From a virus (lineage: Duplodnaviria; Heunggongvirae; Uroviricota; Caudoviricetes), in IMG/VR virus record IMGVR_UViG_3300031998_000001, positions 109,064 through 173,063 of that record: a DNA stretch of 64,000 bases; one strand, given 5' to 3'. How positions within the stretch are numbered: position 1 is the stretch's first letter; the number at the start of each line of letters is the position of its first letter. The notes below the pieces were generated by a model. It was not told the DNA's origin, searched no databases, and saw nothing but the letters and a program-made list of their open reading frames with translations. The position numbers were made by a program, and so were the translations under genes. Positions 3,496-52,532 of the stretch are shown in pieces.

Positions 3496-3566
3496 GGGGC
3501 TGAAGCCCCAGAGAGAAGGCTATCGGGGGACACTCCGAAACGCCATCATAATATATCGTTATTGCT

Positions 3567-3740
3567 ATGGCGACATTCCAAGAAGTGTTTGACGAGATGC
3601 TCGCACGGCTTGAAAAGGCTGACGCGGAGATAAAGGAGAAAGACCTGATAATACACGACCTCGAATGCCGTGTAGCCGACTTGGAGAAACGGCTTGGGCG
3701 CATAACGAAGAAGAAACCGAAGAAGAAATCCGAAATTTAG
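3567..3740 (+). CDS. small coiled-coil protein with basic tail (57 aa)
   Basis: ATG ORF verified codon by codon. It is below the 60-aa track cutoff and sits in an otherwise empty 280-bp gap. Heptad-like pattern (LEKADAEIKEKDL...LEKRL) followed by KKKPKKK. Confidence 0.35.
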   Translation: MATFQEVFDEMLARLEKADAEIKEKDLIIHDLECRVADLEKRLGRITKKKPKKKSEI

Positions 3741-3778
3741 GATACGGACTTGCCCTTCGGTCTTGTGTTAGGCACACA

Positions 3779-5038
3779 TTAAAAGATTTTCTCGATTTCC
3801 TCTATGTATTTTCTACCGAACAGCGTATCGACAATCTTCCTTGCGAACGCCTCCTGCCTCTTGTCAACATCTGGTCTGTCGAGTTCTTTGTCTGAAATGT
3901 AATAGTTGATGCAAACTTCGACATCCCCGTCCAGATGCTTCCAATTTTCTTCGTCCATATATTGAACTGCAAACTCCACATTGCCTGCTCTGGTTCTTTC
4001 TTTTGAATACGGCTCAAACCTGCCCCTCTTCCAAACCGTGCCCCACGAGCATTCGTATCCGTTGCGCTTGAAATCCTCTTCATATGTATCTTCCATATCA
4101 TCTTGCCCTATTACCTCTACATCAAAATACTCACTCATAATTTTTCCAACGTAGATGCACATATCGTAAGGGTGTACACAAAACGGATAGCATACACCGT
4201 TGTCTTTGTATTCGTCATATAGGGGGGAACGCCCTCTATCTAAATTTGGTAGTGCGCGATACCCAAATTGCTTCAAAGCATTGTTAAATTTTCTTATGGT
4301 ATTTTCACCTGAAAATGATTTGTATTTTTCAACACCGTCCCAGTCGGTATTGTAGAAGTCAAAGTGCTTTTCCCACAACGGATAGAGGAAAGCGTCGATG
4401 TCTATGTGTATTGTTATTTTGTTTTCCTTTTCGGAGTGCGGGTCATACACCCGTTCAACATCCCAGTCGTTGACGATGCCTTGCTTGCGGTATTTGTCTG
4501 GCGCATTTGTAATGCCCCGTTCCAGTTTGTCCGACATAATCTTCCTGACATACCTGCTTCCGTCCCCATTGTAGAGTTTACCGTCCTTGCCGAGCAGGAG
4601 TTTGCTCCCGTCAACAACCACGCTTGCTATGATTGTGACACTCGACCTTGTGTCTGGTGTCTTGATTAGGTACGGGGTGAGGGGTGTCAAGTCAACCACC
4701 TCTACGCCTTTCGGCAATATAGCACCGTCAAGCATATCGCTCTGTACTTTGGCGCACGCCTCAAAGTCCTTTACACCAGAATATGTTACTGTGTGCTCGT
4801 GGTCTTTTCTGTCTTTCGATACAGCCTTTATACCAGCGTTCTTGTCCTTTGTGATTTCCTCGAACCAGATGTCGCTTATCAGGTTTCCGTTCCTGTCGGT
4901 CAGGTTGTAAAGCCCGTTCCTGTTCTTCACAATAAAATATGTCGAATCAAATATGTCGAACTCTTCATAGTCCTTGAACATATTTGGTCTCACCGCCATT
5001 TCATTGATAAATTCTTCAACTTTCAATATGCGTATCAT
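3779..5038 (-). CDS. hypothetical protein (about 419 aa), opposite orientation to flanking genes
   Basis: Long minus-strand ORF. The track start at 5044 is TTG; the first ATG is at 5038. No motif recognised. Confidence 0.55.
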   Translation of the reverse strand: MIRILKVEEFINEMAVRPNMFKDYEEFDIFDSTYFIVKNRNGLYNLTDRNGNLISDIWFEEITKDKNAGIKAVSKDRKDHEHTVTYSGVKDFEACAKVQSDMLDGAILPKGVEVVDLTPLTPYLIKTPDTRSSVTIIASVVVDGSKLLLGKDGKLYNGDGSRYVRKIMSDKLERGITNAPDKYRKQGIVNDWDVERVYDPHSEKENKITIHIDIDAFLYPLWEKHFDFYNTDWDGVEKYKSFSGENTIRKFNNALKQFGYRALPNLDRGRSPLYDEYKDNGVCYPFCVHPYDMCIYVGKIMSEYFDVEVIGQDDMEDTYEEDFKRNGYECSWGTVWKRGRFEPYSKERTRAGNVEFAVQYMDEENWKHLDGDVEVCINYYISDKELDRPDVDKRQEAFARKIVDTLFGRKYIEEIEKIF

Positions 5039-5126: not shown

Positions 5127-7508
5127 ATGGGAGAGAAAGAACAGGCTAACACGACCGTCTGGTCGTCGAAGTCGGTGGCGAAATATACCGATGACATAGA
5201 CTCTGGCGTTGAGCGCAAGGGAGAGTCCCCGTTCTTTATGGGCAACAAGAAGTATCGCAAGGCAAATCTATTGTTTGAATATACGCAGGAGGAGGTTGCC
5301 GAACTGCTCAAGTGCAAGAATGATGTCCGTTACTTCGCCAACCACTATGCGTGGGTCAAGAACGCTGCCGAGGGTGGTGCCGTCGCGCAGATAACATTGA
5401 GGGACTATCAGGAGGATGTCCTCAATGTCATTGATGAAAACAGGTTCTCAATTATTCTCGCAAGTAGGCAGTCGGGGAAATGCTCGATACATTCGACTAT
5501 AATTGATACGGAGAACGGCGAGAAACGGGCGATTGGCGAATTGTTCGATGACGGTGATACATTCCTGTCAAGGGTTAAACGCTTCTTATATAAGTTGCAC
5601 GGCATACGCTTCATCAAAAATATCACAGGGCATTTGATACAGTTCATTGAACACATCGAGAACAGGGGCAAGGCGGTTTATGACGGCAAGTTCATTGATG
5701 AGCAGGACATATCGCTTATGGTGAAAAGTGATACGGGGTTCGTGCCCGCCACGAAGGTATATAAGACAAAGCCGTACAATGTGTACGAGGTCTTTTTTAC
5801 GGACGGCACTAAAATAGAGTGTGCGGACACCCATATATTCTTTACAGGTGAACTTGCGGAGGTATTCTGCAAGGACTTGAAGTCAGGCGACCGCTTGTTC
5901 GGGGACGGGTGCATAAAGACCGTAAAGAGTGTCAGACGACATAACTACAAGTTCTGTATGTACGATGTGTCAGTTGACGATGACACGCACAGGTACTATA
6001 CCAACGGGGTGCTGTCCCATAACACTATCAGTTCTTCGATATACTTGGCTTGGTATCTCCTGTTCAACTATGACAAGAATGTCTTTCTTACCGCGAACAA
6101 GGAGCGCACCGCCCGCGATGTGCTGTCGAAAGTTCAGGAGATAATAGAGAATGTGCCGTTCTTTATGAAACCGGGCATATTGAAGTGGGGTGCGCTCGAC
6201 CTGAAGTTCGACAACGGTTGCAAGTGCATTGCCGAATCGACAACGCCCCGCTCTGGTATCGGCTTCACAATCAACCTGCTCTACTTGGACGAGTTCGCCC
6301 ACGTCGAGAAAGGCATCATAGACGAGTTCTACTCCAACATTATGCCTACCGTAACATCACTCCCAGACAGCAAGATTATCATCACTTCGACACCGAACGG
6401 AATGAACCTGTTTTATGAAATCTACTCGGCTGCGGAGAAGGGGCTTAACGGCTTCAAGCCGTACAGGATAGACTGGTGGCAAGTTCCCGACTGGGACAAG
6501 AACCAGCGCAAGTGGGTGAAGCGAGACGAGGAGTGGATGGAAAGGACGATAGCGATACTCGGAGGCGAGGACAGGGAACTCGGTCTTGAACGCTTCGGTG
6601 CGCAGTACGGCAACTCGTTCTTGGCTACGGGCAACCTGCTCATATCCCCGAACGGCTTGAAGCGTATGGAGGAGAGCAAGGTGCAGTTCGTTCAGGACGA
6701 GAGCGACATATTCGACAGGTACGAGATAGAGGAGGCGAAGTACCTGCGGTGGCATCCAGATATTGATGTGCCGTCGCTGAAAACCAACACGAAGGACTTT
6801 TTCCTCATAAGCGTTGACCTCTCGGAAGGCAACGGGGGCGACTTCCTCGTGTCGGACATTTTCCGCGCTGGGGTTATGTCCCGCGAGGATGTTGAGGCAT
6901 TGCACACCCCGAACAAGATTTCCGACTATGTGTGCTTGGAGCAGGTCGGGGTATGGGCGCACAACTATATGTCCCTGAAGAACTTTGCGAAGTTCCTCTA
7001 TGTGCTGACGCACAAGTTGATGAACCCAGAGAATTTGAAGATAATCCTCGAATGGAACGCATTTGGCGGGGAGGTTATGTCGGAACTCGGATATGTGTTC
7101 GGGGACAGGAACGACTTCTCGAAGGATGTCATACTCAAATTCAAGCACAGCATAGACAGCGACATATACAAGTACGGCTTGAAGGTCAATGCCGAGAACA
7201 AGAAGATACACTGCCAGATGATGCGCACCAACACGGCTTGCGGGCGTATGATAGTCCACGACATACCGACCATAAAGGAGTTCAACCTGTTCGGGCTACG
7301 GAAGAACAGTTATGCCGCCATAACGGGGCACGACGACTTGGCGATGACCTGCGTGAACGCAAACGCCTTCTTCGAGACGAGGGCTTTCGGGTGGATTTCC
7401 GACAATGTGATTGCGGAGAGCGGGCGTATGCAGGAACTGCTCGATGCGATGAAGGTCAACGGTGACCCCGATGTCGAGTACGGGAGCATATATTCGGCGG
7501 CATTCTGA
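5127..7508 (+). CDS. terL: terminase large subunit, intein-containing
   Basis: Walker A ASRQSGK|T is interrupted by an intein. Walker B-like LLYLDEFAHV is present. The C-terminal nuclease-like half is present. The size fits once the intein is removed. Confidence 0.85.
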   Translation: MGEKEQANTTVWSSKSVAKYTDDIDSGVERKGESPFFMGNKKYRKANLLFEYTQEEVAELLKCKNDVRYFANHYAWVKNAAEGGAVAQITLRDYQEDVLNVIDENRFSIILASRQSGKCSIHSTIIDTENGEKRAIGELFDDGDTFLSRVKRFLYKLHGIRFIKNITGHLIQFIEHIENRGKAVYDGKFIDEQDISLMVKSDTGFVPATKVYKTKPYNVYEVFFTDGTKIECADTHIFFTGELAEVFCKDLKSGDRLFGDGCIKTVKSVRRHNYKFCMYDVSVDDDTHRYYTNGVLSHNTISSSIYLAWYLLFNYDKNVFLTANKERTARDVLSKVQEIIENVPFFMKPGILKWGALDLKFDNGCKCIAESTTPRSGIGFTINLLYLDEFAHVEKGIIDEFYSNIMPTVTSLPDSKIIITSTPNGMNLFYEIYSAAEKGLNGFKPYRIDWWQVPDWDKNQRKWVKRDEEWMERTIAILGGEDRELGLERFGAQYGNSFLATGNLLISPNGLKRMEESKVQFVQDESDIFDRYEIEEAKYLRWHPDIDVPSLKTNTKDFFLISVDLSEGNGGDFLVSDIFRAGVMSREDVEALHTPNKISDYVCLEQVGVWAHNYMSLKNFAKFLYVLTHKLMNPENLKIILEWNAFGGEVMSELGYVFGDRNDFSKDVILKFKHSIDSDIYKYGLKVNAENKKIHCQMMRTNTACGRMIVHDIPTIKEFNLFGLRKNSYAAITGHDDLAMTCVNANAFFETRAFGWISDNVIAESGRMQELLDAMKVNGDPDVEYGSIYSAAF
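5481..6023 (+). other. mini-intein (181 aa, Hint domain, no homing-endonuclease domain) inside terL P-loop
   Basis: Starts with Cys immediately after the Walker A lysine (CSIHSTIIDT, block A). Block B is ECADTHIFFT. Blocks F/G are MYDVSVDDDTHRYYTNGVLSHN followed by the extein Thr. Confidence 0.8.
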
Positions 7509-9097: not shown

Positions 9098-9523
9098 ATG
9101 ATAACGATAGAATACAACGAGAGGAAATCCACCGTGAAGGTGGTCGGGGAAGCGGGCGAGATGTACTCGTTCTCCAGAGTGAAGGTAAGCGATGAGACGC
9201 ACTATTACAGGCTCTACTACATCGGGAAGGACGGCAACCTTATGAGGTGCATAGCCAGATACCCGAAGGACGCGACCGCAGTCGTGTACTGCGATGTCGA
9301 TGTTACGGTGGAAGTTTCCCCGAACGGAGGCGGGACGGCAACTGGCGGAGGCTTCTACCCCTGCGGTGCGGGCGTGGTGCTCTCGGCAAAGGCTCGCGAG
9401 AACTATGCGTTCAGGAGGTGGGCGGACAGGGACGGCAAGACCATAGGCACTGTGCCGAATATGACGCTGGTCGCCGACACCGACACCTATGCCTGTGCGG
9501 AGTTTGTTTCTGAAAAGCAGTAG
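9098..9523 (+). CDS. InlB B-repeat-like (Bacteroidetes Ig-like repeat) domain protein
   Basis: The C-terminal half is NGGGTATGGGFYPCGAGVVLSAKARENYAFRRWADRDG...MTLVADTDTYACAEF. This fits the GGxVxGxGxY...VxLxAxP..GYxFxxW...TAxF repeat signature. Confidence 0.5.
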   Translation: MITIEYNERKSTVKVVGEAGEMYSFSRVKVSDETHYYRLYYIGKDGNLMRCIARYPKDATAVVYCDVDVTVEVSPNGGGTATGGGFYPCGAGVVLSAKARENYAFRRWADRDGKTIGTVPNMTLVADTDTYACAEFVSEKQ

Positions 9524-14404: not shown

Positions 14405-14701
14405 ATGGCATACTATAAGTTTAAAATAAAGAAAGTAACTTGGGAGAACGGAGATGTCCGCTATTTCGGGGTTGTGCGCAGCGGCTTGCTCGGACGGCTT
14501 GGCGTATGGCGTTACATCGAGGAGGGCGTGGAGGTTCTTTTGAACAACTACAACGGAAGGCACACGAAAGATGGCGCACTTGCCGACATTCGTGAGTACA
14601 AGCAGTTTCACGGCTTGATGCCGAGCGACGGGATGATTGACACGCACCACTTGTTCGAGAAGCCCGTCGAAGTCGAATACATAGACATTGAAGATGATTA
14701 A
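14405..14701 (+). CDS. GLLGRLGVWRY-motif family protein, member 1
   Basis: RYFGVVRSGLLGRLGVWRYIE. Shares the motif with 15897 and 34751. Confidence 0.55.
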   Translation: MAYYKFKIKKVTWENGDVRYFGVVRSGLLGRLGVWRYIEEGVEVLLNNYNGRHTKDGALADIREYKQFHGLMPSDGMIDTHHLFEKPVEVEYIDIEDD

Positions 14702-15095
14702 GGAAGTTATCAAATATTACACGGACATAGATTGCGCATACACCTTTGACAAGAGGGAGGACGCGGAGAAGTTTGAAAGGACATTCAAGCCGTTCTATGA
14801 CCTCAATGAAGAGGCGGAGCAGGTCTATGACAATGTTGTCGCCAACAGGGACAAGACCGACTGTGGCAGGATGAAACTGGCGGAGGAACTGTTTAACAAG
14901 GCAAAGCCGTTGCTCATAGCCTATGTCAAGGAAAGCGGAATGTTCAGGGACAAAACGGAGAAGGAACTTTGCAACCTTACATTCTGCAAGAGGGATGTGG
15001 GGCGCGTGGTTGACATATTCTTCCACGAGGACTTGGAGGACTGCATAATAGGACAGTTGTTCGATACGATTTACACGATAGTAATTGGCTGGTAG
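14694..15095 (+). CDS. tandem paralogue family B, member 1
   Basis: MIKEVIKYYTDID...AEKFERTFKPFYDLN. The track start 14688 is TTG. Confidence 0.55.
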   Translation: MIKEVIKYYTDIDCAYTFDKREDAEKFERTFKPFYDLNEEAEQVYDNVVANRDKTDCGRMKLAEELFNKAKPLLIAYVKESGMFRDKTEKELCNLTFCKRDVGRVVDIFFHEDLEDCIIGQLFDTIYTIVIGW

Positions 15096-15097
15096 TT

Positions 15098-15478
15098 ATG
15101 ATAGAGGAAATTAAAAAATACCGCACGGACATTGACCGCTCGTACATCTTTGAGACGAAGGATGAGGCGGAGAAGTTTGAAAGGACATTCAAGCCGTTCT
15201 ACGACCTTAACAGAGAGGCGGAGGATGAGCGGGTTCGTTGTGGCGATGACAGAATGGAGAAGGCGCAGGACTTGTTCGACAGGGCAAAGCCACTGCTTGC
15301 CGCCTATGTGAATGAAAACAGAATGTTCGATGACAATACCAAGAAGGAACTTTGTGGCATTGCCTTTTGTAGAACCGACATTGCGCGTGTGATTGGCATA
15401 TTCTTCCACGAGGATAAGAAGGATTGCATCATAGGGAGGTTGTTTGATACGATTTTTGCAATAATAGTTGGATGGTAG
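15098..15478 (+). CDS. tandem paralogue family B, member 2
   Basis: MIEEIKKYRTDID...AEKFERTFKPFYDLN. Confidence 0.6.
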   Translation: MIEEIKKYRTDIDRSYIFETKDEAEKFERTFKPFYDLNREAEDERVRCGDDRMEKAQDLFDRAKPLLAAYVNENRMFDDNTKKELCGIAFCRTDIARVIGIFFHEDKKDCIIGRLFDTIFAIIVGW

Positions 15479-15480
15479 TT

Positions 15481-15918
15481 ATGATAGAGGAAATTAAGAA
15501 AACGGTTTACCGCTCGGACATTGACGGGCAGTTTGAGTTCGATACTCTGGAGAAGGCGGAGAAGTTCGAGAGGACATTCAAGCCGTTCTACGACCTTCTC
15601 AAAGTAGCCAGACAGGAGTACGACTACATAAGCACATATTCGGAGGACAGTTCGATAGACAATGTGAAGATTGCCCGCGACTTGTTCAACAAGGCTATGC
15701 CGTTGCTTGCCGACTATGTGGCAAAAGTCGAGCCAGACCACTGTATGCCAGAAGATGTGGAGCACCACGGCAAGTTCTGCCCCGACAATGTGATGTGGCT
15801 TTCCAACGCCTTTGCCAATGTTGGCTTTGACGACAATGTAATCGGCGAACTCTTCAACGAGATATATGACATAATGAAATTTAGAAACTTCGGGATATGG
15901 ATATACAAAAAGGAATAA
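15481..15918 (+). CDS. tandem paralogue family B, member 3
   Basis: MIEEIKKTVYRSDID...AEKFERTFKPFYDL. Confidence 0.6.
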   Translation: MIEEIKKTVYRSDIDGQFEFDTLEKAEKFERTFKPFYDLLKVARQEYDYISTYSEDSSIDNVKIARDLFNKAMPLLADYVAKVEPDHCMPEDVEHHGKFCPDNVMWLSNAFANVGFDDNVIGELFNEIYDIMKFRNFGIWIYKKE

Positions 15919-16766: not shown

Positions 16767-17531
16767 ATGGAAAACATATACGACATACTGAAAGGCGCAC
16801 CGAGAGGACTTGAACTCTGGTCATCGCTCTGCGGGGAGTGCAAACTGGTAAGCGTGTACGACAATGCCGAGAGGACGAATATGCGTACACCGAAAGGAAT
16901 CATAGTTCGAGGCAAGTATGCCGACATTACGGACTACGACTTTACATTCGACGAGTTCGGCAGGTTCAGTGAGCGTGGCGCGTGTCTGCTCTATCCGAGC
17001 AAGACGACAAGCACTTGGGAGTTCTGGCAGAATAGGCTTCTCCGCAGGGGCGACATAGTTACGGACGGGGACACGCTTTATCTTATAAAGGCTGAACCCA
17101 ATGAACTTATATGCGCTGACGGAAATCTTGGCGCATCGACACCTTACCGAGACCTTTCGTATGCAACAAGGGAGCAGGCGGAGAACTTCTGGAGGGAGTT
17201 CCGCGCCAACGGCTTCGAGTTCGATGAAGGCACTGGCGAAGTCCGCAGGAAGAAGAAGCCGAGCCTCCGTATGTTCTCGTTGAGCGAAAGCGAGTATCCC
17301 GAAAACAGGATGCGCATACTCGTATGGGACAGGGTTCGCGGAAGATGGGAGATAAGGCGTTACCTTGACGGAAGGCTGTGGGAGGACGACCGCTCGCGCG
17401 GAAGCGAGGATATGAGGGAACTCATACACCCAGACCGCACGGGCTTGCCGATATTCCGATTCCCGTACTGGATGCCGATGAGGGAAATCCCGATACCAAG
17501 TGGCGAGGAGAAATACTTTGGAGAATATTAA
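16767..17531 (+). CDS. tandem paralogue family C, member 1
   Basis: N-terminal APRGLELWSSLCGECKL and GACLLYP...WEFWQ are shared with the next two large ORFs. Confidence 0.6.
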   Translation: MENIYDILKGAPRGLELWSSLCGECKLVSVYDNAERTNMRTPKGIIVRGKYADITDYDFTFDEFGRFSERGACLLYPSKTTSTWEFWQNRLLRRGDIVTDGDTLYLIKAEPNELICADGNLGASTPYRDLSYATREQAENFWREFRANGFEFDEGTGEVRRKKKPSLRMFSLSESEYPENRMRILVWDRVRGRWEIRRYLDGRLWEDDRSRGSEDMRELIHPDRTGLPIFRFPYWMPMREIPIPSGEEKYFGEY

Positions 17532-17543
17532 ACAGGTTATGTG

Positions 17544-18533
17544 ATGAGAGATATAGTCGAGATATTGAGATACGCACCAGAGGGAACTACACTTTATTCC
17601 CCGCTGTGCGGAAAGGTGAAACTCGTGAAGGTAACGCCGAACATTGATGACAAGTTCGGCAAGATTGACGGGAGCATAAGGATACGCACGATAAAGGACC
17701 CGCACCCGTCCGAGCATACATTCGACCGCTACGGGCGGTATATGCTTTCGGACAATGTGGCGAGCGAGGAGTGTATGCTCTTCCCGCAGATACTTCACCG
17801 CACTTGGGACAACTGGCAGGATATACTCATACCGAAGGCTGTCGGGTGCGTGGTAAAGGACAACGATGCGGGCGAGTGCTATTTCGTGCCGAAGGTGAAG
17901 CGCATAGTCAATGTGAAGGGGGCGGAGGTCAAGTTCCCAGACGGATTCGGTTCATTGTGCTACGCATCGCCCGAAGATACAATCGCCTTTATTACCGCGC
18001 TCAACTGCAACCATATCAAGTGGTGCAAGGAGACTGGGGAGATGGTTGCGGATGTGAAGGGCTATGTGGAGGAAGTCGAAAGAAAGGCTTGCGCAGTCGA
18101 GTGCCTTTCACAGCACAGGTACAGTCGTGGTGACAAGGTGGTATGTATGGCGAAAGGTGACGGCAAGTGGCTCGATACCATACAGGAAGTTGATACTGCT
18201 TCCCGCGTGTACAGACTCGAAAGCGGTTTCGTCGTCCCGTTCGATACGCTCGACGACGAGGACGGAAACTTCCGCCCAGCCGAACTTGACAACAGAAAGC
18301 CGTTCACGGAGGACGACTTGCACCCGTTCGATGAGGTTCTTGTAAGGAAGGACAAATGGGACAGGTGGGTGGCAAGGCACTATTCCCACTTGGGTTGTAC
18401 GGAATATGTATGCACGGACGGGGAGCAGTACGAACAGTGCGTGCCGTACAACGAGGAGACGAAGCACTTGTTCCTCACCACCGACAACTATGCTGGCAGG
18501 TACAAGACTTGGTATGACGATGTTGAATATTAA
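17544..18533 (+). CDS. tandem paralogue family C, member 2
   Basis: APEGTTLYSPLCGKVKL, ECMLFP...WDNWQ, and C-terminal CVPYNEET. The track start 17541 is GTG. Confidence 0.6.
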   Translation: MRDIVEILRYAPEGTTLYSPLCGKVKLVKVTPNIDDKFGKIDGSIRIRTIKDPHPSEHTFDRYGRYMLSDNVASEECMLFPQILHRTWDNWQDILIPKAVGCVVKDNDAGECYFVPKVKRIVNVKGAEVKFPDGFGSLCYASPEDTIAFITALNCNHIKWCKETGEMVADVKGYVEEVERKACAVECLSQHRYSRGDKVVCMAKGDGKWLDTIQEVDTASRVYRLESGFVVPFDTLDDEDGNFRPAELDNRKPFTEDDLHPFDEVLVRKDKWDRWVARHYSHLGCTEYVCTDGEQYEQCVPYNEETKHLFLTTDNYAGRYKTWYDDVEY

Positions 18534-18543
18534 GCCGTGCGAT

Positions 18544-18735
18544 ATGAAGTTCAGGATAAGCAAGGAATCAAAGGAAAGGCTCGAAAGCATTATGAGCAAT
18601 GCGATGTGCGATTTCGTCAACGGCGAGGAGGACGACATTATGGTTGGCAGGATACGCAGGGCGACCGTCGAACTTACTGTCGAGTACGAGGGTAACAACC
18701 AGTGGATAACGGCAAAGTTGGTTAAATATGAATAA
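18544..18735 (+). CDS. hypothetical small protein (63 aa)
   Basis: ATG MKFRISKESKERLE, in-frame with the tail of track ORF 18406. Confidence 0.4.
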   Translation: MKFRISKESKERLESIMSNAMCDFVNGEEDDIMVGRIRRATVELTVEYEGNNQWITAKLVKYE

Positions 18736-18756
18736 TAACATAAAAAATATAATAGT

Positions 18757-19884
18757 ATGAATTACGATGTAAATATTGCAAGGGACTTGGTGAACGCTCC
18801 GAAGGGACTTCGCCTCTGGTCGCCCCTTTTCGGTCAGTGCCGACTTGAAGAGTTGGTAATACCCGCGCAGGGTGGGTATAATGTAAAGGTGTCAACGGTA
18901 AGGGACAACGGGGAGGTGATAGAGCACTTCTTCGAGAATGACGGAAGGTATTTTAACGGCTACACGAAAGGCGAGTGTATGTTGTTCCCAGACGAATACA
19001 AGCGTTGGGAGGAGTGGCAGTATTCGTGCTTCCGCAGGAGCATAGGGTATGTGATAGTTCCGATTGAGGGGAGCGCGGTAAACCACACTTTCCTTATCAC
19101 GAGCCAAGACTCGTGCGTAAGGTCGAAGAACCCGACATTCAACTTTGAACTCGAATACAAGTGCAAGGGATACCGCTACGCCACGCCCGCAGAGACGGAG
19201 GATTTCTTCCGAGAACTTGTGCAGGCTGGCTACGAGTGGGACACCAACGCTATGAAACTCGTGAAACTCCCGTCAAGGGAAAAGGCTGACTTCGAGAAAA
19301 TTATGGAGCGCAGGGGGACTTGCAACTCGATGTTGAGCCGTGATGTTGTTTCTGACCGTAGCAACGGTGGTGTTGACAATGACGAATCCAGCAAGGGCGT
19401 TGATGTATCAGACCGCAAATACGGCAACTCGGTCTATACGAAGGTGCTTCACCCGAAGTACAATGTGGGCGAGTACATAGTTGCCGAGCACTGTGGGGAA
19501 ATCCTCGTCGGACCCGAAATGATAACGGAAGTGCTTGCCGACAAGTATGTGCTTGGCGACGACATATACCCGATACTCCTCGTTGACAGCGACAGCGACT
19601 TCCGCCTTGCTACCGACAGGGAGATTGCCGAAGTTACCGACAACGCAGGCGAGGGCTTCGGGCTTCCGCCCTTCAAGCCCTTCCTCAAGGTTCTCGTAAG
19701 GGACACGGACGGCGACCCTTGGGACATAGCGATATTCAAGTATTACAATAATCGAGAGAAGAACCACTACAAGTACGCCTGTATGGACGACGACTGGGCG
19801 CAGTGCATACCCTACAACGAGGAGACGGAGAAACTGCTCCGCACCACCGACAAGCCAGACGAGAAATATGTAACTTGGAGATAA
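18757..19884 (+). CDS. tandem paralogue family C, member 3
   Basis: APKGLRLWSPLFGQCRL, ECMLFP...WEEWQ, and C-terminal CIPYNEET. Confidence 0.6.
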   Translation: MNYDVNIARDLVNAPKGLRLWSPLFGQCRLEELVIPAQGGYNVKVSTVRDNGEVIEHFFENDGRYFNGYTKGECMLFPDEYKRWEEWQYSCFRRSIGYVIVPIEGSAVNHTFLITSQDSCVRSKNPTFNFELEYKCKGYRYATPAETEDFFRELVQAGYEWDTNAMKLVKLPSREKADFEKIMERRGTCNSMLSRDVVSDRSNGGVDNDESSKGVDVSDRKYGNSVYTKVLHPKYNVGEYIVAEHCGEILVGPEMITEVLADKYVLGDDIYPILLVDSDSDFRLATDREIAEVTDNAGEGFGLPPFKPFLKVLVRDTDGDPWDIAIFKYYNNREKNHYKYACMDDDWAQCIPYNEETEKLLRTTDKPDEKYVTWR

Positions 19885-35120: not shown

Positions 35121-35999
35121 ATGGTGCATATCAAGAGAACGAACGAGATGGCTGGTTTCCAGCCAAGACACATAAAGGTTGATGACTTTTTTGACATCAG
35201 TTCAATATCCCGCAAGGACATCACATCAATATCGACGGACTTGCGCGTGTTTTTTCAAGTCAAATTATTTGACTCGAATATTGATTACTCCGACGGCGAG
35301 CATATCAACGAAAGCGTCGAAAGGACACTAACCATAAGCGAAATCAAAAGAGAGTTGAGGAAACTCAAGTTCAAGAGGTGGCAGATTTCATCAGAAATGG
35401 GTCAAAACGGAAACAGGATAGCCATCCTGTATGCGGACATAGCGATGAACACCGACATAATCAGCCAGAAGATGGAATCGTTCGGGTGGGAATGTGCGGA
35501 TATTTCCGATGCGATGGAAATATACGGCGTTATGTGCCGAGTTATGACATTCGACCCGTCGTATCCGCAGGAAATATCGGACTATGTGTTCGGATGCAGA
35601 TATATTTATCATTGGACACCGAAGGCAAGGGTTGCATCTATTCTTTCGGACGGCATAGAACCACGTAGCGAAAATGAATACTTGAAGTTCAAGCCCAAGG
35701 TGCATCTGATGAAAGAGAATGTCACGAAACGAGTTGCTTCAAATCTCGGATGGCAGTTATACAATAGGAAATCGGAATCGAATGAGGGTGAATACTGCCT
35801 GTTGAGAATAGCCGTGAACAAGATACCCAGCAATGTCAAGTTTTATGGAGATACGAGATGCGGTTGCGGAATTACCACGAAATGTACGATACCGCCCGAA
35901 GCGATAACGATATTCGGGAAGATAGAATACAGGGACAAGCAGAAATATCACAACGAGAAGATTATAGTGCTCGTGGATGACGATACAATGAACCAATAG
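35121..35999 (+). CDS. protein with divergent Tpt1/ADP-ribosyltransferase-fold C-terminal domain
   Basis: The C-terminal 100 aa align motif by motif with the window's Tpt1 gene (11936). IYHWTPKARVASILSDGI matches LYHGTAARFVDQILREGI. KVHLM matches YVHLS. KFYGD...ITT..IPPEAI matches KFYLSNNGVWLTEYVPTRYL. Confidence 0.4.
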   Translation: MVHIKRTNEMAGFQPRHIKVDDFFDISSISRKDITSISTDLRVFFQVKLFDSNIDYSDGEHINESVERTLTISEIKRELRKLKFKRWQISSEMGQNGNRIAILYADIAMNTDIISQKMESFGWECADISDAMEIYGVMCRVMTFDPSYPQEISDYVFGCRYIYHWTPKARVASILSDGIEPRSENEYLKFKPKVHLMKENVTKRVASNLGWQLYNRKSESNEGEYCLLRIAVNKIPSNVKFYGDTRCGCGITTKCTIPPEAITIFGKIEYRDKQKYHNEKIIVLVDDDTMNQ

Positions 36000-46533: not shown

Positions 46534-47733
46534 ATGTATATCGCACCGTCGGATGTATTCATATTCGAGAACTACGGGGACGACCTGTTGAGGCTCACCC
46601 CCGAAACAAAGGGCGCACTCCTCCGCTGTGACAGGCGTTTCCACAAGTTGATGGAGGAGTATGAGAGGGAACACGTGCATTTCGCAAATGTGAAGAATGT
46701 CCGTTCCGAGATAGACAAGTACCTTGAAGCGAGGAAGAAGGGCAAGAGCCACAGGTTGAGGCTCGAATACGAGGACAGCAAGTTCTCGGACGACAAGTGG
46801 TGCGACGGGATGATTGGGAAACTCGGAGAACTCAAGAACGATTTGATAACCGTTGACTGCTACCTCACGAAGTTCTACATATACAGGATTGACCGAACGA
46901 TAGACAGCATAATGTTCCTCAACGAATACTCGCACGATGAAAACGCCTTCCCGAAGAACATAAAGCGTCCTTCGGAGAAACTCTACCGCAAGGCACTCGA
47001 ATACCTCGTGAAGTACAAGTACCAGAGCGTACAGGAACTCGCGGACAAGGACGAGGACTACAGGAGGGTGTTCACCCCAGAGGAGAGCAGGAAGCGTTTA
47101 CAGAAAATCATCGACAAACTCGGCTACGGCTGGAAGGTCATCATAGACGACAATATGGTTCCGAGAATGAGCGTGAGACCGTATCGGGAGTTCAGGATAA
47201 ATGCGAAAAACAACTTCAGCGAGGTTGACCTCCGCTCCCTCGAAGTCCACGAGATAGAAGTCCACACGGCTCGCAAGGCGAATGCGTTGAAAACAGGGCT
47301 GTACCTGTTCCTATACGGGCTTGAGGGGGACAACATATATGACGAGGGGCTTGCAATCTACAACTCCCTCAACAAGGCGGAGAAGCCGAAGCCGAACATA
47401 ATCTTCTTCATAGCGATAAAGATTGCCATACTCTACAACCTCTACATTATGGACACGGACGCTCTGTACGAGATGCTACTCGGCTTGACCGAAGCACCAG
47501 AGGAGGTCGTGGTGTACGCAATCATAAGGGCGATGAGGGTGTTCTCGTTCACGACGACCGAGACGGCATACACGGACACCGACTACCTTGACGGGTACGA
47601 GAGGGTTAAGGAGATGGACTCGGCACTCAAGAAAGACCTCCTGCTCTACACGATAGGACCCGACCAGTTGTATGAACTCCCGATAATAAAGAAGTTTATG
47701 CAGGTAAACAAGTTCAAGCCTCTGGAGGTGTAG
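46534..47733 (+). CDS. DUF1704/QEGLA-motif (MATCAP-like) putative metallo-carboxypeptidase
   Basis: HEIEVH (HExxxH spacing), then DEGLA about 30 residues later. Size about 400 aa is typical of the family. Confidence 0.4.
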   Translation: MYIAPSDVFIFENYGDDLLRLTPETKGALLRCDRRFHKLMEEYEREHVHFANVKNVRSEIDKYLEARKKGKSHRLRLEYEDSKFSDDKWCDGMIGKLGELKNDLITVDCYLTKFYIYRIDRTIDSIMFLNEYSHDENAFPKNIKRPSEKLYRKALEYLVKYKYQSVQELADKDEDYRRVFTPEESRKRLQKIIDKLGYGWKVIIDDNMVPRMSVRPYREFRINAKNNFSEVDLRSLEVHEIEVHTARKANALKTGLYLFLYGLEGDNIYDEGLAIYNSLNKAEKPKPNIIFFIAIKIAILYNLYIMDTDALYEMLLGLTEAPEEVVVYAIIRAMRVFSFTTTETAYTDTDYLDGYERVKEMDSALKKDLLLYTIGPDQLYELPIIKKFMQVNKFKPLEV

Positions 47734-47752
47734 GAATATAAAAATCAATTTT

Positions 47753-47818
47753 AAACGGAATTATCCCTTTTAGTCTTGTAGTCGTCATCCCGATATAACG
47801 GCATACCGTCATAACGAA
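47753..47818 (+). repeat. left terminal inverted repeat
   Basis: AAACGGAATTATCCCTTTTAGTCTTGTAGTCGTCATCCCGATATAACGGCATACCGTCATAACGA. Confidence 0.65.
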
Positions 47819-47894
47819 TTTTCTGCTACTCGCAGAATTTACACCTGCATTATTATAGTCCCTACCTTTGCGATGTAACCAAAGGCAACGGACT

Positions 47895-48827
47895 ATGAAC
47901 CAGTTTGAATTTTTTGAGAAGTTTCCTACGGAGGACGACGCAATCGACTTCATCGTGGAAACGAAGTACAGGGACGGATATGTCTGCCCCAAGTGCGGAT
48001 GCGTGCATCACAAAATCTATCATCAGAAGTACAACCGCAGAAATCTTTATTGCAACAACTGCAAGAGCGAGTTCTCGGCATTGTCTGGAACTATCTTTGA
48101 ACACACCCATCTTGACCTGCGTATGTGGCTCTTTGCAATAAACTTGGTGCTTATTGCACGCAAGGGCATAAGCGGATTGCAGTTGCAAAGGGAACTCGGT
48201 ATGGTGTCCTACAAGGGTGCTTTCCGTATGCTCAAACTGATAAGGCAAGCGATGGGGACGGAAGCCCATAAAGATACATTCGAGGCAATCGTTGAAATAG
48301 ATGAAACCTATGTCGGTGGGAAGCCACGCAAGGAAAACAGACACAAGGGCAAGGTGTCCAAAAAGTCAAAGCGAGGACGAGGAACAAGCAAGACACCAGT
48401 CGTGGGCGTGGTCGAACGCAGTAGCGGGCGCATATACGCCAAAGTTGCACTGCCGAACAAGGAAGGCAAGAAGTTAAGCGGAAAGCAACTGCTGTCCATA
48501 CTGGACGAGGTGTGCAAGTCGAACACTACCGTTATGACCGACCAGTTGAGCAGTTACGGGATTCTGGACGGCAAGACCGACAGGAAGTACATACACATAA
48601 AGATTGACCATAGTATGACTTATTCGCTTGGGGACGGCAAGCATACGAACACCATCGAATCCTGCTGGGCGATATTGAAGCGCGGTGTATATGGTATCTA
48701 CCACCACATATCAACAAGGCACTTGCAGGAGTATGTGGACGAGTTCTGCTACCGCCTTAACCACCGCCAGCCCGATGATGCTTGGAAGCATCTGGTCGGG
48801 CTGGGGATAGGGTGTATGGCGGTGTGA
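47895..48827 (+). CDS. IS1595-family (ISXO2-like) DDE transposase
   Basis: N-terminal transposase zinc-ribbon (FPTEDDAIDFIVETKYRDGYVCPKCGC...CNNC). DDE_Tnp_IS1595-like core (IDETYVGG...MTDQLSSY...HTNTIESCW). Confidence 0.8.
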   Translation: MNQFEFFEKFPTEDDAIDFIVETKYRDGYVCPKCGCVHHKIYHQKYNRRNLYCNNCKSEFSALSGTIFEHTHLDLRMWLFAINLVLIARKGISGLQLQRELGMVSYKGAFRMLKLIRQAMGTEAHKDTFEAIVEIDETYVGGKPRKENRHKGKVSKKSKRGRGTSKTPVVGVVERSSGRIYAKVALPNKEGKKLSGKQLLSILDEVCKSNTTVMTDQLSSYGILDGKTDRKYIHIKIDHSMTYSLGDGKHTNTIESCWAILKRGVYGIYHHISTRHLQEYVDEFCYRLNHRQPDDAWKHLVGLGIGCMAV

Positions 48828-48830
48828 CTA

Positions 48831-49697
48831 TTATTTGCTGAAATCAACAAAGTTTCTTATTTCTTCCGCCCATTGCTTATATTGGGAATTGTCGAAGTGC
48901 TCGCCGTTCTTCATAGTGTAGAACACATTTCGATTCGTGTTTTTCAAAAACTTTCCACTTTCAACGATTTCGATGAACTGTTCAGCGTTTATCTTTTCTA
49001 AAATTTTGTCAATGAAAAACCATTTGACAAAATCGGTAGAACACGGTAACAATCCAGAAATATCAGTAAAGGCATAATCATAACATTCTTTAAAAAGAGT
49101 CGTGTCTGAATGATTTGGCAATGTTTCATATACGGCAACAAGTCCTTCTACTGTCATAGAATACTTGTTATAGTCATTATAAGAATCAAGTTGGTTTCTC
49201 AATATATCTTTTAACGAATATTTTTTATTAGGGTCTAAATCAAAATCCTCATATCCGTCATCATATTGACCATCTTCAATCGCTCCTTCTGCTTCATTGA
49301 TTGCCCTGAAGCCTCTGCGCGAAGCACGGCTTTCGATTGTGCGTCCCGACAATAACTGTCTGACATAACTCATAACGGGTGTCAAGTCAACTATCCAACT
49401 TCCCCAACTGCCTTCTTCCTCTTGTTTTATATCCATCATATAGTAAACACCGTCTTTTTCGTAAATTTCAGTATCACCATCGGAAAAATCGTAAATGTGC
49501 GTATAACCCTCGTTTTTCAAATAATTTAACACATCATTCCAAGTGTCACCCATAAGTTCCCAAAATGAATCGTCTGTATTTTTATGCAAACCATTAACAC
49601 CATCGGCATAATAAGTTTGAAGTTTATTTTCAGCGGGAGATGTATATACCTCGTTAACTTTCATTTCGTTTAATCTTCTAATATGTACCATATTCAA
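48831..49697 (-). CDS. cargo gene, hypothetical (288 aa), AT-rich
   Basis: Minus-strand ORF inside the IR-bounded unit. Confidence 0.5.
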   Translation of the reverse strand: MNMVHIRRLNEMKVNEVYTSPAENKLQTYYADGVNGLHKNTDDSFWELMGDTWNDVLNYLKNEGYTHIYDFSDGDTEIYEKDGVYYMMDIKQEEEGSWGSWIVDLTPVMSYVRQLLSGRTIESRASRRGFRAINEAEGAIEDGQYDDGYEDFDLDPNKKYSLKDILRNQLDSYNDYNKYSMTVEGLVAVYETLPNHSDTTLFKECYDYAFTDISGLLPCSTDFVKWFFIDKILEKINAEQFIEIVESGKFLKNTNRNVFYTMKNGEHFDNSQYKQWAEEIRNFVDFSK

Positions 49698-49812
49698 ATC
49701 AATTATATTATTCTACTATTATTTATATTTTGTGCTTCCGCTGGGATTTGTTACCTTTGCCGATGAAAAGATGGAAAGTTTCCAATATATTATATAGTAA
49801 ATAATTCCGACT

Positions 49813-50289
49813 ATGAAGTACAAGAATATGGAAGTTGAATACATAACGAAGGACAACTTGCCGAAAGTCGCGGAACTGCTTGGCGACGAATCGCTGCTTG
49901 CCTACGATGACATCTGCTTTGAGCATAGTATGTACAGTATGAATAAAAAAGGTGAAATAACATCGGTAGTCATATTACGCCGAAATTCGTTGTTTGACTA
50001 TTATGGCGGGGAGATTCCAGACGACATAAATTTCGATGAACACAAGGATGTTATCAGGCAGAGTTTGAATGATTTGTACCCAGATGGCAATGTCCATTAT
50101 GAAATGGTCTGTTGCTATATGAAAAGCAGAAATTATTTCATTCATATCCACGAACTCTATAATTTGATTGGCATTCTGCCAACGGGAATAGTCTGGTGTA
50201 AATATCAAATGGACAAAGAATTTCCGTTACATTGCGTATTTTATAACTTTAACAATGACATTTGGATTCATTTGAGTATCGAGGATTGA
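49813..50289 (+). CDS. cargo gene, hypothetical (158 aa)
   Basis: ORF inside the unit, preceded by a promoter-cassette-like variant. Confidence 0.45.
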   Translation: MKYKNMEVEYITKDNLPKVAELLGDESLLAYDDICFEHSMYSMNKKGEITSVVILRRNSLFDYYGGEIPDDINFDEHKDVIRQSLNDLYPDGNVHYEMVCCYMKSRNYFIHIHELYNLIGILPTGIVWCKYQMDKEFPLHCVFYNFNNDIWIHLSIED

Positions 50290-50333
50290 TACTATAATAT
50301 CCATATAAATATTACATAAGATATTTGTAATGG

Positions 50334-51023
50334 ATGAAACGACTTAATTTTTCAAAAGTAGAACCATACGCCGTTGCTGATTGGATAGAAAGCAATAAAA
50401 ACGGTAATCGACTTGACTATATCAAAGGGAAGGAAGATACAAAAGAGGTAATCAGAAGACTGGGAAGATTGCCGTATGGTATGTTTAATGATATTGAGAA
50501 ACTGAAGGGGTGGTTTCTAAAGAACTTGGAAATGAGAGCGGCACAAACCAATTCATTGTATCGTGCATTTCTTTCTATAAAGAATGACAAAATCATTAAC
50601 TTGAGGGTTGCCGACCATTTTTCGACAATGAACTCCGCTACAAAGGCATTTGGATTATATGGCAAATCGGATTACGAATACCACATTTCCCCAGAACAGT
50701 CGGGAAATGCAAATGGCGATAGCATTGATGACGATTGCATTATTAACTATAAAGGGAAACGCATTGAAATAATCGTTGCGACAATTTGGTTGGATGAATT
50801 TATTGTAGATGGAAACGAAAACTGCAAAAAGATAATAGACGACTTAATATTTCTGCTTCAAAAAGGTCGAAAGCGCAATAGTACACAAGAGAATTTTACA
50901 TTTGTGGTTTCAAATGGGGATGTTTTTGAAAATGCAAATGTATATAATATAGCCAAATTGAACACGAATCACATTTTAACCATTGACGAATTTCTTGCGG
51001 AAAGTAGTAATGATGGATTGTGA
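50334..51023 (+). CDS. cargo gene, hypothetical (229 aa)
   Basis: ORF inside the unit. Confidence 0.45.
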   Translation: MKRLNFSKVEPYAVADWIESNKNGNRLDYIKGKEDTKEVIRRLGRLPYGMFNDIEKLKGWFLKNLEMRAAQTNSLYRAFLSIKNDKIINLRVADHFSTMNSATKAFGLYGKSDYEYHISPEQSGNANGDSIDDDCIINYKGKRIEIIVATIWLDEFIVDGNENCKKIIDDLIFLLQKGRKRNSTQENFTFVVSNGDVFENANVYNIAKLNTNHILTIDEFLAESSNDGL

Positions 51024-51081
51024 TAATCCCAGCCTATGACATTCCGTCCTACCCCGATTTGCGGTGGGCGAGTACACCATA

Positions 51082-51148
51082 TCGTTATGACGGTATTCCG
51101 TTATGTCGGGATGTCGGCTACAAGACTAAAAGGGATAATTCCGATTTT
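51082..51148 (-). repeat. right terminal inverted repeat
   Basis: TCGTTATGACGGTATTCCGTTATGTCGGGATGTCGGCTACAAGACTAAAAGGGATAATTCCGATTTT is the reverse complement of the left IR. Confidence 0.65.
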
Positions 51149-51154
51149 AAATAT

Positions 51155-51183
51155 GAAAAAGCCCGATATGAAATCGGGCTTGC
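51155..51183 (-). terminator. terminator for minus-strand gene 51235-51768
   Basis: On the minus strand: CAAGCCCGATTTCATATCGGGCTTTTTCATATTT. Confidence 0.55.
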
Positions 51184-51234
51184 AAGTGTCGCCCTGACGA
51201 CACCGTAACTCCTTCTACATCTTGGTAGGCGAGC

Positions 51235-51768
51235 CTATTTCTTCACATTCTCCGTGTAGTTCCTGAAGAACTCCTGACGATAGACCTCCCCGTAGTAGCC
51301 CTCTTTCGCCATAACAGCGAGTGCCTTGCTGCCAGTCCACTCTCCGAGCACGGCATAGTTCCTGTCGGAGAGGTCGTCATTGAGGGCGAGTTCGAGGGTT
51401 ATATCGACATACACCCCGTCAACCTTGTTGAAGGCGTGCTCTATCGGAAGCCCGAACACCGTAACGAAGCCCTCGCAGTAGAGTATCTCCCTGCCGAGTT
51501 CACCGAGCCTTGACGAGAAGTGGAATGCGTTTTCATAGCAAGCCTTCTGCTTCGGGTGAACCGCACGCCTTATGCGCCCTATCTCGTCCTCCGTGAATAT
51601 TTCCCGCAGGGGGTGTACGACCACTGGCTTGATGTCCTTGAGCATCTGGGAGTAGTAGTCCTTGCCAGCCCCGCTCGATATGCTGGCTATCTCGGAGACA
51701 TACCTTACAATCGGGTTATCTCCGCCCGCGCTTTCAAGAAGCCTGTATTCGTTGTATTTCCTGACCAT
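51235..51768 (-). CDS. hypothetical protein
   Basis: First gene of the minus-strand block. Confidence 0.5.
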   Translation of the reverse strand: MVRKYNEYRLLESAGGDNPIVRYVSEIASISSGAGKDYYSQMLKDIKPVVVHPLREIFTEDEIGRIRRAVHPKQKACYENAFHFSSRLGELGREILYCEGFVTVFGLPIEHAFNKVDGVYVDITLELALNDDLSDRNYAVLGEWTGSKALAVMAKEGYYGEVYRQEFFRNYTENVKK

Positions 51769-51788
51769 ACCCGTCCTGTCCTATTATC

Positions 51789-52532
51789 CTACATTTCGTC
51801 CATATAGCAGTTGAGGGACGGATTCCATACCCTTGTTCCGCTCACCTTTCCCTTCGGTGCATTGTTCACCGCCACAGCCTTCTTCGTTTCGGGCTTGACC
51901 TCCTCCGCAGGTGTTTCTGGCTCTGGTTCGGGTGTCGCTTCGGGTGTCGGCTCTGGCAATGGCACTTCGGCTGGTGCTTCGGCTTCCACCTCCGCTTCGG
52001 GAACTGGCTCTGGCTCTGGTTCGGGCAGAGGCTCTGCAATCGGCTCTTCCGCCACCTTGTCCTTCTTCGGCTGTAACACATTGACCATAGTCCTTACGAA
52101 GCCGAGCGCGACAAGAGGAAGTATCGCGCCAGATATGCAGGCGAGCACCCGCTTCTGCGCAATCGGTTCGAGTTCCTCAAGCCCGAAGAGTTCTATCCAG
52201 CCCTGAAAGTTGTCGAGGGCGGAGTAGGCTGCGTATGTGTTGCCCATCATCTGGAAGAGGGTAAGCAACACGAACATAAGCCAGACGAGTGCCTGCTTCT
52301 CCTTCGGAAGTATGAGCGTGCTCAATAGGCAGCACATCGCACCGAGTTCAAAGCCTATGGCAAGCACCCAAGACATAGTTCCTGCGTGCGCAAGGCGGAA
52401 GAACTCCACCGAGCAGATAAGGCTTATGCACGCCACGAGGACATAGAGAAGCCCGAAAGCCGAGCAACTCACATACTTTATTATGTTATGCCTGTCAATC
52501 TTCATAGTTGTATTTGTTAAAGTTAGACACAT
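51789..52532 (-). CDS. polytopic membrane protein with Pro/Glu-rich tail
   Basis: Four or more hydrophobic helices, then PEPEPEPVPEAEVEAEAPAEVPLPEPTPEATPEPEPETPAEE. Confidence 0.55.
   Translation of the reverse strand: MCLTLTNTTMKIDRHNIIKYVSCSAFGLLYVLVACISLICSVEFFRLAHAGTMSWVLAIGFELGAMCCLLSTLILPKEKQALVWLMFVLLTLFQMMGNTYAAYSALDNFQGWIELFGLEELEPIAQKRVLACISGAILPLVALGFVRTMVNVLQPKKDKVAEEPIAEPLPEPEPEPVPEAEVEAEAPAEVPLPEPTPEATPEPEPETPAEEVKPETKKAVAVNNAPKGKVSGTRVWNPSLNCYMDEM

Follow-up and report, generated by a model that had tools for sequence, protein, structure and literature searches.

Passenger-carrying members of the IS1595 family of insertion sequences (IS) are referred to as transporter IS (tIS), a concept attributed to Siguier, Gagnevin & Chandler (2009) as cited in PMC11891212. 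The locus analysed here lies within a 64,000-nucleotide stretch of phage DNA (positions 109,064 to 173,063 of the IMG/VR record IMGVR_UViG_3300031998_000001, Caudoviricetes), which we call the window, and the 3,388-bp unit found at 47756-51143 of it is in all likelihood a tIS of the IS1595 family, native to Bacteroidales of the rumen and gut and inserted into a rumen phage. As in the tIS subgroups ISNha5 and ISNwi1, this unit has a single zinc-ribbon/DDE transposase, terminal inverted repeats (IRs), an 8-bp duplication and passengers placed between the transposase and one of the IRs, whereas the Bacteroidales host clade, the phage carrier and the orphan passengers, present instead of regulators, distinguish it from both. 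ISNha5-type elements have ends of the form CGGnnTT and sizes from ~3.4 kb, with which the CGGAATT ends and the 3,388 bp found here are consistent.

Two other IS1595-family elements, tISCpe8 from Clostridium perfringens and MTnSag1 from Streptococcus agalactiae, confer lincomycin resistance, with IRs of 25 bp and repeats of 8 bp (PMC5704250). They share with the phage element an IS1595 DDE transposase, terminal IRs, 8-bp direct repeats and a cargo that is mobilised as one unit, but they are elements of Firmicutes with an antibiotic-resistance gene, an oriT and conjugative mobilisation, whereas the element described here has neither a resistance gene nor an oriT, has IRs of 62 bp and resides in a phage. 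The carriage of defence genes as cargo has been described for Tn7-like elements (PMC8649781), and these resemble the family to which our element belongs in combining conserved machinery and ends with a variable cargo rich in restriction-modification (RM), toxin-antitoxin (TA) and other defence genes. In contrast to them, the members of this family measure 2-4 kb, carry 1-4 cargo genes, use a single transposase and insert into A/T-rich sequence instead of an att site, without a target-site selector. Finally, the moron or accessory islands of phages are, like this locus, AT-rich foreign clusters with their own promoter (a putative one here) placed between transcription units near a terminator; unlike in those islands, the acquisition vehicle, that is, the transposase, the IRs and the duplication, is intact here and the route of entry is visible. 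The transposon itself brings nothing mechanistically new for IS1595 elements: it is of a known type (a tIS), and the phage carriage together with the orphan cargo is the uncommon part.

The original prediction, which was made from the letters of the window, had placed an IS1595-family transposase inside a 3.4-kb unit bounded by IRs of about 65 bp matching at about 60 of 65 positions. Long terminal IRs do bound such a unit, although their real length, once the ends were read and aligned from outside, is 62 bp with 58 of 62 positions identical, and only the outer ~25 bp are conserved across the element family. The features of the locus are the following (window coordinates):

47748..47755, no strand: left copy of the target-site duplication, ATTTTAAA, identical to 51144-51151
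47756..47817, + strand: left IR (IRL), 62 bp, tip CGGAATTATCCCTTTTAGTCTTGTAG, 58/62 identical to the right IR; outer 25-26 bp kept at both ends of relatives
47863..47870, + strand: -7 promoter-like element TACCTTTG (TAnnTTTG), ending 25 bp before the ATG of the transposase
47895..48827, + strand: IS1595-family transposase, 310 aa, intact, recognised by Pfam and NCBIfam profiles
48831..49691, - strand: orfA, 286 aa, opposite-strand passenger called as an open reading frame (ORF), N-terminus MVHIRRLNEM, GC 0.354
49711..49796, no strand: intergenic block between the divergent orfA and orfB, 84-90% identical in loci L011, L012 and L013, with TACCTTTG at 49752-49759 (+)
49813..50289, + strand: orfB, 158 aa, first gene of the B-C pair (ORF)
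50334..51023, + strand: orfC, 229 aa, second gene of the B-C pair (ORF, homologues)
51082..51143, - strand: right IR (IRR), 62 bp, pairs with IRL; 61 bp of it match the left end of L011 at 95% identity
51144..51151, no strand: right copy of the target-site duplication, ATTTTAAA, identical to 47748-47755
51159..51181, - strand: terminator-like hairpin of the phage context, outside the element, with a 9-bp stem that includes 5 GC pairs, then a T-run, TTTCATATTT

The two IRs (47756-47817 and the reverse complement of 51082-51143) begin with CGGAATTATCC, and their outermost 26 bp match perfectly. A repeat search of 47000-52000 returned a single long inverted repeat, with arms of 65 nt at 47753-47817 and 51082-51146 that are 92% complementary; the extra outer 3-4 bases that seem to match come from the duplication, as ATTTTAAA is partly palindromic. 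This 8-bp duplication, which it had been suggested to look for, is perfect on both sides of the element. In the 64 kb there are exactly two occurrences of the 25-nt IR tip, against none in any of 100 shuffled sequences. As had been noted from the letters, the transposase starts 77 bp inside the left IR (ATG at 47895) and no second IR follows it: neither the repeat search nor a scan with the IR ends found one inside the element beyond one 3-mismatch match at chance level. With a single transposase gene and a single pair of IR tips in the window, the unit does not have the make-up of a composite transposon. The three ORFs that lie between the transposase stop and the IRR, and which are enclosed together with the transposase by the duplication as a tIS would have them, are located where they had been called, except that the ATG at 49691 is a likelier start for orfA than the 49697 given earlier. 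Their AT-richness against a phage of about 50% GC is also borne out, since the 2.25 kb of cargo remainder have a GC content of 0.356, with 0.496 for the transposase and 0.498 for the whole window. An Rfam scan of the element gave sub-threshold matches only, and these were located outside it.

The assignment of the transposase to the IS1595 family held in two profile libraries, with Pfam PF12762 (DDE_Tnp_IS1595) at 4.9e-33 and 114.7 bits (cut-off 27) and a full-length match to NCBIfam NF033547 at 1.8e-53 and 181.6 bits (cut-off 75). The Zn_ribbon_IS1595 profile (PF12760), for an N-terminal domain that within the family only the IS1016 group lacks, scored 24.6 bits (E=2.4e-5), just below its cut-off of 25.4 bits, and the cysteines C31-x2-C34 ... 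C53-x2-C56 are invariant in relatives that are only 66% identical. D136, D216, E255 and K262, a putative catalytic set of the D, D, E/N (+K/R) type, are likewise invariant among these relatives. The single transposase, the zinc finger and 8-bp duplications are standard in the family (PMC8101967; for the 8-bp repeats also PMC5704250), and the catalytic domain, the zinc ribbon, IRs at both ends and the duplication were all found here. The protein is 97% identical to a copy in a Bacteroidales metagenome-assembled genome (MAG) from buffalo rumen (L011), and every record of the exact protein comes from a copy of this phage, at the site described here. We infer that the element is capable of moving as a unit, and there are indirect signs of transposition: many copies at different sites, with duplications, and an intact ORF that shows only synonymous differences between copies.

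When one genome per prokaryotic species was scanned with the transposase alignment, 41 loci were obtained, 40 of them from Bacteroidota MAGs (the exception, L034, was binned as Clostridia) and many from ruminant guts, with protein identities of up to the 97% of L011. Relatives with 64-66% identity were also present on four IMG/VR viral contigs. Seventeen further complete, transposase-bearing elements of 2.1-4.2 kb could be delimited by IR tips, all with the same tip, and 13 of them are flanked by perfect 8-bp duplications, all A/T-rich; hence the IR tips do stand at the ends of homologous elements elsewhere, a point on which the original prediction could have failed. Two shorter, decayed copies (L042 and L050) are also bounded. 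Because none of the delimited elements has the ~1.1 kb of a bare IS, passenger carriage is the normal state of this lineage. In the nearest relatives the DNA homology, of 83-88%, covers the IRL and the transposase gene, ends within ~20 bp of the stop codon and reappears only in the terminal 25 bp, and the cargo slot is therefore sharply defined.

What fills this slot differs from element to element. In L007, L009, L016 and L023 it is a 741-747-aa protein of the Type IIG restriction-methyltransferase type (PADLOC 1.6e-40; N6_Mtase); L020 has a C5 cytosine methylase (7e-94) and a 366-aa partner, L026-L028 an N6_Mtase with a Methylase_S specificity protein, L031 and L041 SocA_Panacea antitoxin-domain proteins with their partners, and L033 a 1,024-aa methylase-related protein, and several other elements carry genes without recognised identity. 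The RM genes among this cargo are of the Type IIG, Type II and M+S kinds. In the literature searched, we found no description of a swappable defence-type cargo across a Bacteroidales IS family. Close relatives stand in ordinary chromosome, as L016 adjoins DnaK and cellular genes surround L011 and L015. The neighbours of L007 are an integrase, an anti-restriction protein and a RecE-like exonuclease; those of L008 belong to PHROG families.

Non-autonomous derivatives were met along with the complete elements. On viral contigs, L002 contains at ~9262-9379 a MITE-like derivative of ~120 bp with the same IR tips, without a clear duplication, and L003 contains at 3409-4441 a transposase-less element of 1 kb with the same tips and a single 298-aa gene (MAHIKKTEEL...), the C-terminal VLVLDDVMASGST of which looks phosphoribosyltransferase-like by eye, a likeness that we presume. 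The whole of contig L012 (JAGCNN010000307.1, 2,687 bp) is one element from tip to tip, and as the yak MAG from which it comes holds a second copy, L013, this suggests that the element is multi-copy in that MAG and breaks its assembly.

Regarding the cargo of the phage element, neither orfA, orfB nor orfC had any match in Pfam, PADLOC (0 families at E<=0.1), PHROGs, NCBIfam or PDB sequences. Among 5.8 billion proteins, orfA has one homologue (P0001), which shares only the C-terminal ~170 aa; this homologue is chimeric and is encoded in contig L072, which has the same layout, with transposase, an A-like gene (A'), B, C and a long IRR. A word-indexed search found 3 relatives of orfB and 4 of orfC, and a full profile search for orfC reached 32 cluster representatives among 1.84 billion. 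The orfC family has a conserved core, S-x-Y-R-A-F ... L-R-x-S-x-H-x-S-T ... E-Y-H, in which S74, Y76 and H95 are invariant, and the core is followed in the relatives by unrelated, hypervariable C-terminal modules; none of 26 members has a Pfam domain, no relative of orfC was found in the PDB, and its AlphaFold model (pLDDT 31) has no usable fold. A homologue of orfB is located directly upstream of a homologue of orfC in five diverged instances, that of the window included, the B/C identities to the window being 56%/53% in L055, 29%/32% in L014, 31%/39% in L074 and 35%/30% in L072. By this conserved arrangement orfB-orfC is a two-gene unit, and an extremely rare one. It is an adjacent pair, as a Type II TA system would be, without a recognisable toxin or antitoxin domain. 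A low-confidence model suggests a possible GNAT-like fold for orfB, which at the sequence level had no Pfam, NCBIfam or PDB-sequence match to support it, and on inspection of the orfB alignment the acetyl-CoA pyrophosphate-binding motif Q/R-x-x-G-x-G/A was not present.

Another candidate for orfB, the catalytic domain of the CNF1 toxin, appeared with a 4-sequence profile (E=0.004) and was rejected, as the match falls outside the catalytic Cys/His region of CNF1, amounted to 19 bits only and disappeared with a broader 6-sequence profile.

A short peptide at the N-terminus of orfA deserves separate mention. The pattern M-x(1,2)-H-I-[KR]-[KR]-x-[NDE]-E-[MFL] (variant MEKIKKFNEF) stands at the start of many proteins that have nothing else in common, and in the window it is found in orfA, at 49691(-), and in three native phage genes, at 35121(+), 41853(+) and 5038(-), one of them with the Pfam domain WDGH. 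Elsewhere it occurs in cargo of many sister elements (L012, L013, L015, L017, L018, L050, L055, L072 and L003); in the orfC relatives and in a 363-aa protein of L012 it is internal, at the junction of conserved and variable domains. The peptide is conserved at the protein level, since its codons differ synonymously and the DNA that precedes it shows no relationship. It appears to resemble the capsid-targeting sequence of T4 internal proteins; a full-text search of the literature for the peptide found nothing. Two of the native phage genes that carry it, 35121-35999 (+) and 3779-5038 (-), have a GC content of 0.44 and are related to the cargo of sister elements: the 285-aa cargo protein of L015 is 26% identical to the product of 35121-35999 (1e-12), and a remnant in L042 resembles 3779-5038, which is the sole minus-strand gene in its block. 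No degraded IS ends were found near either of them.

The promoter-like motifs of the element are of a type that is presumably the host's own, as TAnnTTTG is the Bacteroides -7 promoter consensus and its occurrences are predicted promoters. In 17 of 19 family members the motif stands 28-37 bp ahead of the transposase ATG, and a second TACCTTTG stands at 49752 in the 86-bp intergenic block, which is common to L011, L012 and L013 despite their different flanking cargo, so that the orfA/orfB intergenic block is the probable promoter region of the cargo. The density of TAnnTTTG is 2.07/kb in the element and 0.25/kb in the rest of the phage (~8x). The phage's own genes are preceded by a different sequence of ~45 bp (TTTTCTGAAAT...ATTTATTAACTATATATTAGTGTTGGAAAG), absent from the IS, with eight + strand copies at ~7737, 10355, 24040, 29643, 32516, 37325, 44260 and 56992 of the window; most of these copies stop 10-25 bp short of the start codon of a gene on that strand, and the sequence probably serves the phage as a promoter or leader of its own.

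From these features the following mode of action can be proposed. The zinc-ribbon/DDE transposase, expressed from the TAnnTTTG host-type promoter just inside the IRL, would recognise the ~25-bp CGGAATTATC... termini and would carry the whole intervening segment in one piece into A/T-rich 8-bp targets, which would then be duplicated (here ATTTTAAA) and many of which appear to look like terminator tails. The slot between the transposase stop and the IRR takes contents that differ per family member, here orfA and the co-oriented orfB-orfC, and both would be served by the conserved divergent intergenic region with its second host-type promoter element. The phage copy would have been acquired from a Bacteroidales host during infection, and both transposase and cargo would be transcribed by the host sigma factor from the TAnnTTTG promoters.

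That the carrier is a phage, as originally proposed, is clear from the large terminase (PHROG 1.8e-41), the Amidase_3 endolysin and the RNA ligase encoded in the window. The predicted position at a strand switch is also correct, and the switch is of the convergent type: the block of + strand genes ends at 47733, and the next phage gene, 51235-51768 (-), has its 3' end toward the element. The hairpin at 51159-51181, which closes the minus-strand block of the phage, begins 7 bp (51152-51158) outside the right copy of the duplication. The element thus occupies a spacer between convergent transcription units, just beyond the terminator, and leaves every phage gene and ORF uninterrupted. A megablast against INPHARED found no close relative of this phage, and relatives sought through the flanking proteins were either too distant (40-44% identity) or absent.

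The same junctions, one or both, are found in contigs from 7 samples and three sources (JGI, ENA and Logan). In comparison with L061, there are 0 differences in the 3,388 bp and in ~1.4 kb to the right, while the DNA further right differs by 3.6%; in comparison with L005, the left flank is 0.94% divergent and the element differs at 6 positions, all of them synonymous and in the transposase gene. Furthermore, three contigs, L063, L066 and L068, each from a different sample and pipeline, end exactly at 51144, the IS/flank junction; contigs with this break come from SRR11060108, ERZ27256849 and JGI 3300028832. An assembly graph would branch at the junction base if occupied and unoccupied genomes coexist, while a break induced by a repeat would reach k-1 bases into the IS. 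Because the element is near-identical among copies with diverged flanks and contigs break at the junction, the insertion looks young and is possibly still polymorphic.

Several observations weigh against the account given so far. The 62-bp IR exceeds the ~25 bp common to the family and the right end is left-like, so it may come from a second, inverted copy and not be a canonical IRR; in fact, the IRR and the LEFT end of L011 have 95% identity over 61 bp, whereas only 25 bp are shared with L011's own right end, and L072 likewise has a long right IR, which suggests that the right end of this lineage once derived from an inverted left end. In the libraries searched, nothing similar to the cargo was detected among defence, toxin or anti-defence families. 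A B-like gene also exists without C or transposase (L052/L053). The enrichment of TAnnTTTG is marginal against a composition-matched model (7 observed against 3.6 expected, P~0.07), and the positional conservation of the motif is a stronger argument than its enrichment. Moreover, the predicted empty junction, ...AAAAATCAATTTTAAATATGAAAAAGCCCG..., was unmatched in exact-pattern scans of viral_contigs and metagenome_contigs, the latter being without this phage: a control pattern of 24 nt from the right flank, which is present in the JGI contig Ga0265299_10000864 (L004), was also unmatched in metagenome_contigs. Because that collection failed its positive control, the absence of the empty site is uninformative. 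As to the B-like gene, it is a homologue with 72% identity, at L052:4970-5458 and L053:5015-5503, without orfC, transposase or IR tips; a short piece of its N-terminus is repeated after it, and its surroundings include HigB/HTH, NYN, a glycosyltransferase and an LRR_5 protein.

The left-like right end could be taken to mean that this is not one transposon but an IS of ~1.1 kb beside a native AT-rich phage island, the right repeat being a solo relic of a decayed composite, and most relatives do have 25-bp IRs, while native genes of lower GC with the same N-terminal motif exist in the phage at 35121-35999 and 3779-5038. However, the perfect duplication encloses the whole 3,388-bp unit and not the transposase part, the one IR-like sequence after the transposase is at chance level, the layout of transposase, cargo and IRR recurs with duplications in 13 other elements, and the unrelated contig L072 has transposase-A'-B-C-long IRR and L055 transposase-B-C-IRR, so that this reading is largely refuted and must be considered very improbable. 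Nor did we find in this phage the cargo without the transposase, which the original prediction had named as grounds for giving up the idea. A mis-assembly of the metagenome that joined an IS to the phage could be suspected in a family that is multi-copy in rumen MAGs (such as the one-element contig L012), since repeats provoke chimeras; yet identical junctions in independent JGI, ENA and Logan contigs from 7 samples, made with different assemblers, and the perfect target duplication leave such an artefact hardly any credit. The element could be a neutral hitch-hiker that recently passed from a host chromosome into a replicating phage and persists in a harmless spacer, its cargo having no role for the phage, and we give this explanation close to an even chance. 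It would agree with the zero divergence of the cargo among all phage copies when flanks differ by 1-3.6%, with the three contigs that break at the junction as if occupied and unoccupied genomes coexisted, with promoters of the host type and not the phage's upstream motif, with the insertion in a convergent intergenic spacer, and with the general rarity and poor tolerance of IS elements in phages (PMC3429520), also reflected in the only 2 relatives of the transposase, both distant, among 50,697 deposited phage records. On the other hand, the site is occupied in all 7 of the samples with a junction-spanning contig, which makes the insertion a common one in the population at the least; two sister elements, L007 and L008, have likewise found their way into prophage-like or integrative elements, and the cargo ORFs are intact.

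Alternatively, orfB-orfC might be a two-gene conflict module (a TA or addiction system, an abortive-infection-type defence or a counter-defence) that benefits the replicon carrying it and that in a phage could exclude competitors or counter host immunity, an explanation that we regard as a reasonable but tentative candidate; that of a neutral passenger is at least as likely. The original prediction had suggested that the cargo could deliver host-modulating, defence or anti-defence genes; no library match of the three proteins points to such a role, but RM and TA genes do occupy this slot in sister elements. In favour of a conflict function, B is always directly upstream of C in the five instances, which have diverged in parallel (30-56% identity), the same slot holds RM systems and Panacea TA pairs in sister elements, the cargo is AT-rich and of foreign composition, the C-terminal modules of the orfC relatives are hypervariable, and GNAT toxins exist, to which the possible fold of orfB could point. 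Nevertheless, PADLOC and the other libraries gave no match, confidence in the orfB model is low, the acetyl-CoA motif is absent from orfB, the orfC model is unusable, B-like genes stand alone in L052/L053, and guilt by association is weak evidence. A more ambitious combination would have the tIS family shuttling conflict genes among chromosomes, integrated elements and lytic phages, with orfB-orfC as an unrecognised defence or counter-defence system and, at the same time, the N-terminal peptide as a targeting or processing signal, for instance for a T4-like packaging of proteins into the virion; taken jointly, we consider these two propositions unlikely.

Some other genes of the phage also caught our attention. 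The last gene before the IS, 46534-47733 (+), encodes a 399-aa protein with a match (1.7e-11) to Pfam MATCAP (microtubule-associated tyrosine carboxypeptidase), a metallopeptidase-like family that is unexpected for a phage. In the large terminase (TerL), 5127-7508 (+), 793 aa, the Intein_splicing profile gave a match at residues 187-257 that is below threshold (E 2.2e-8, 34.5 bits, cut-off 35.8) and precedes the ATPase domain, so that TerL may contain an intein. There are also two sets of three tandem paralogous ORFs, at 14694-15918 (+), with the N-termini MIKEVIKYYTDIDCAYTF, MIEEIKKYRTDIDRSYIF and ...MIEEIKKTVYRSDIDGQF, and at 16767-19884 (+), with the N-termini ...LKGAPRGLELWSSLCGEC, LRYAPEGTTLYSPLCGKV and LVNAPKGLRLWSPLF.

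In summary, the unusual points of this locus are the phage carrier, the orphan cargo genes and the swappable, defence-type cargo across the family. An intact cargo-carrying IS in a phage, with its junctions, its duplication and its bacterial sisters, is a clean case of the acquisition of an accessory island in one step. The view of the family, with one backbone and a swappable slot (occupied by RM systems, Panacea pairs or orphan pairs), is possibly more useful than that of a single insertion, and this cargo slot is a place in which to seek new conflict systems of Bacteroidales, for which orfB-orfC is a candidate.

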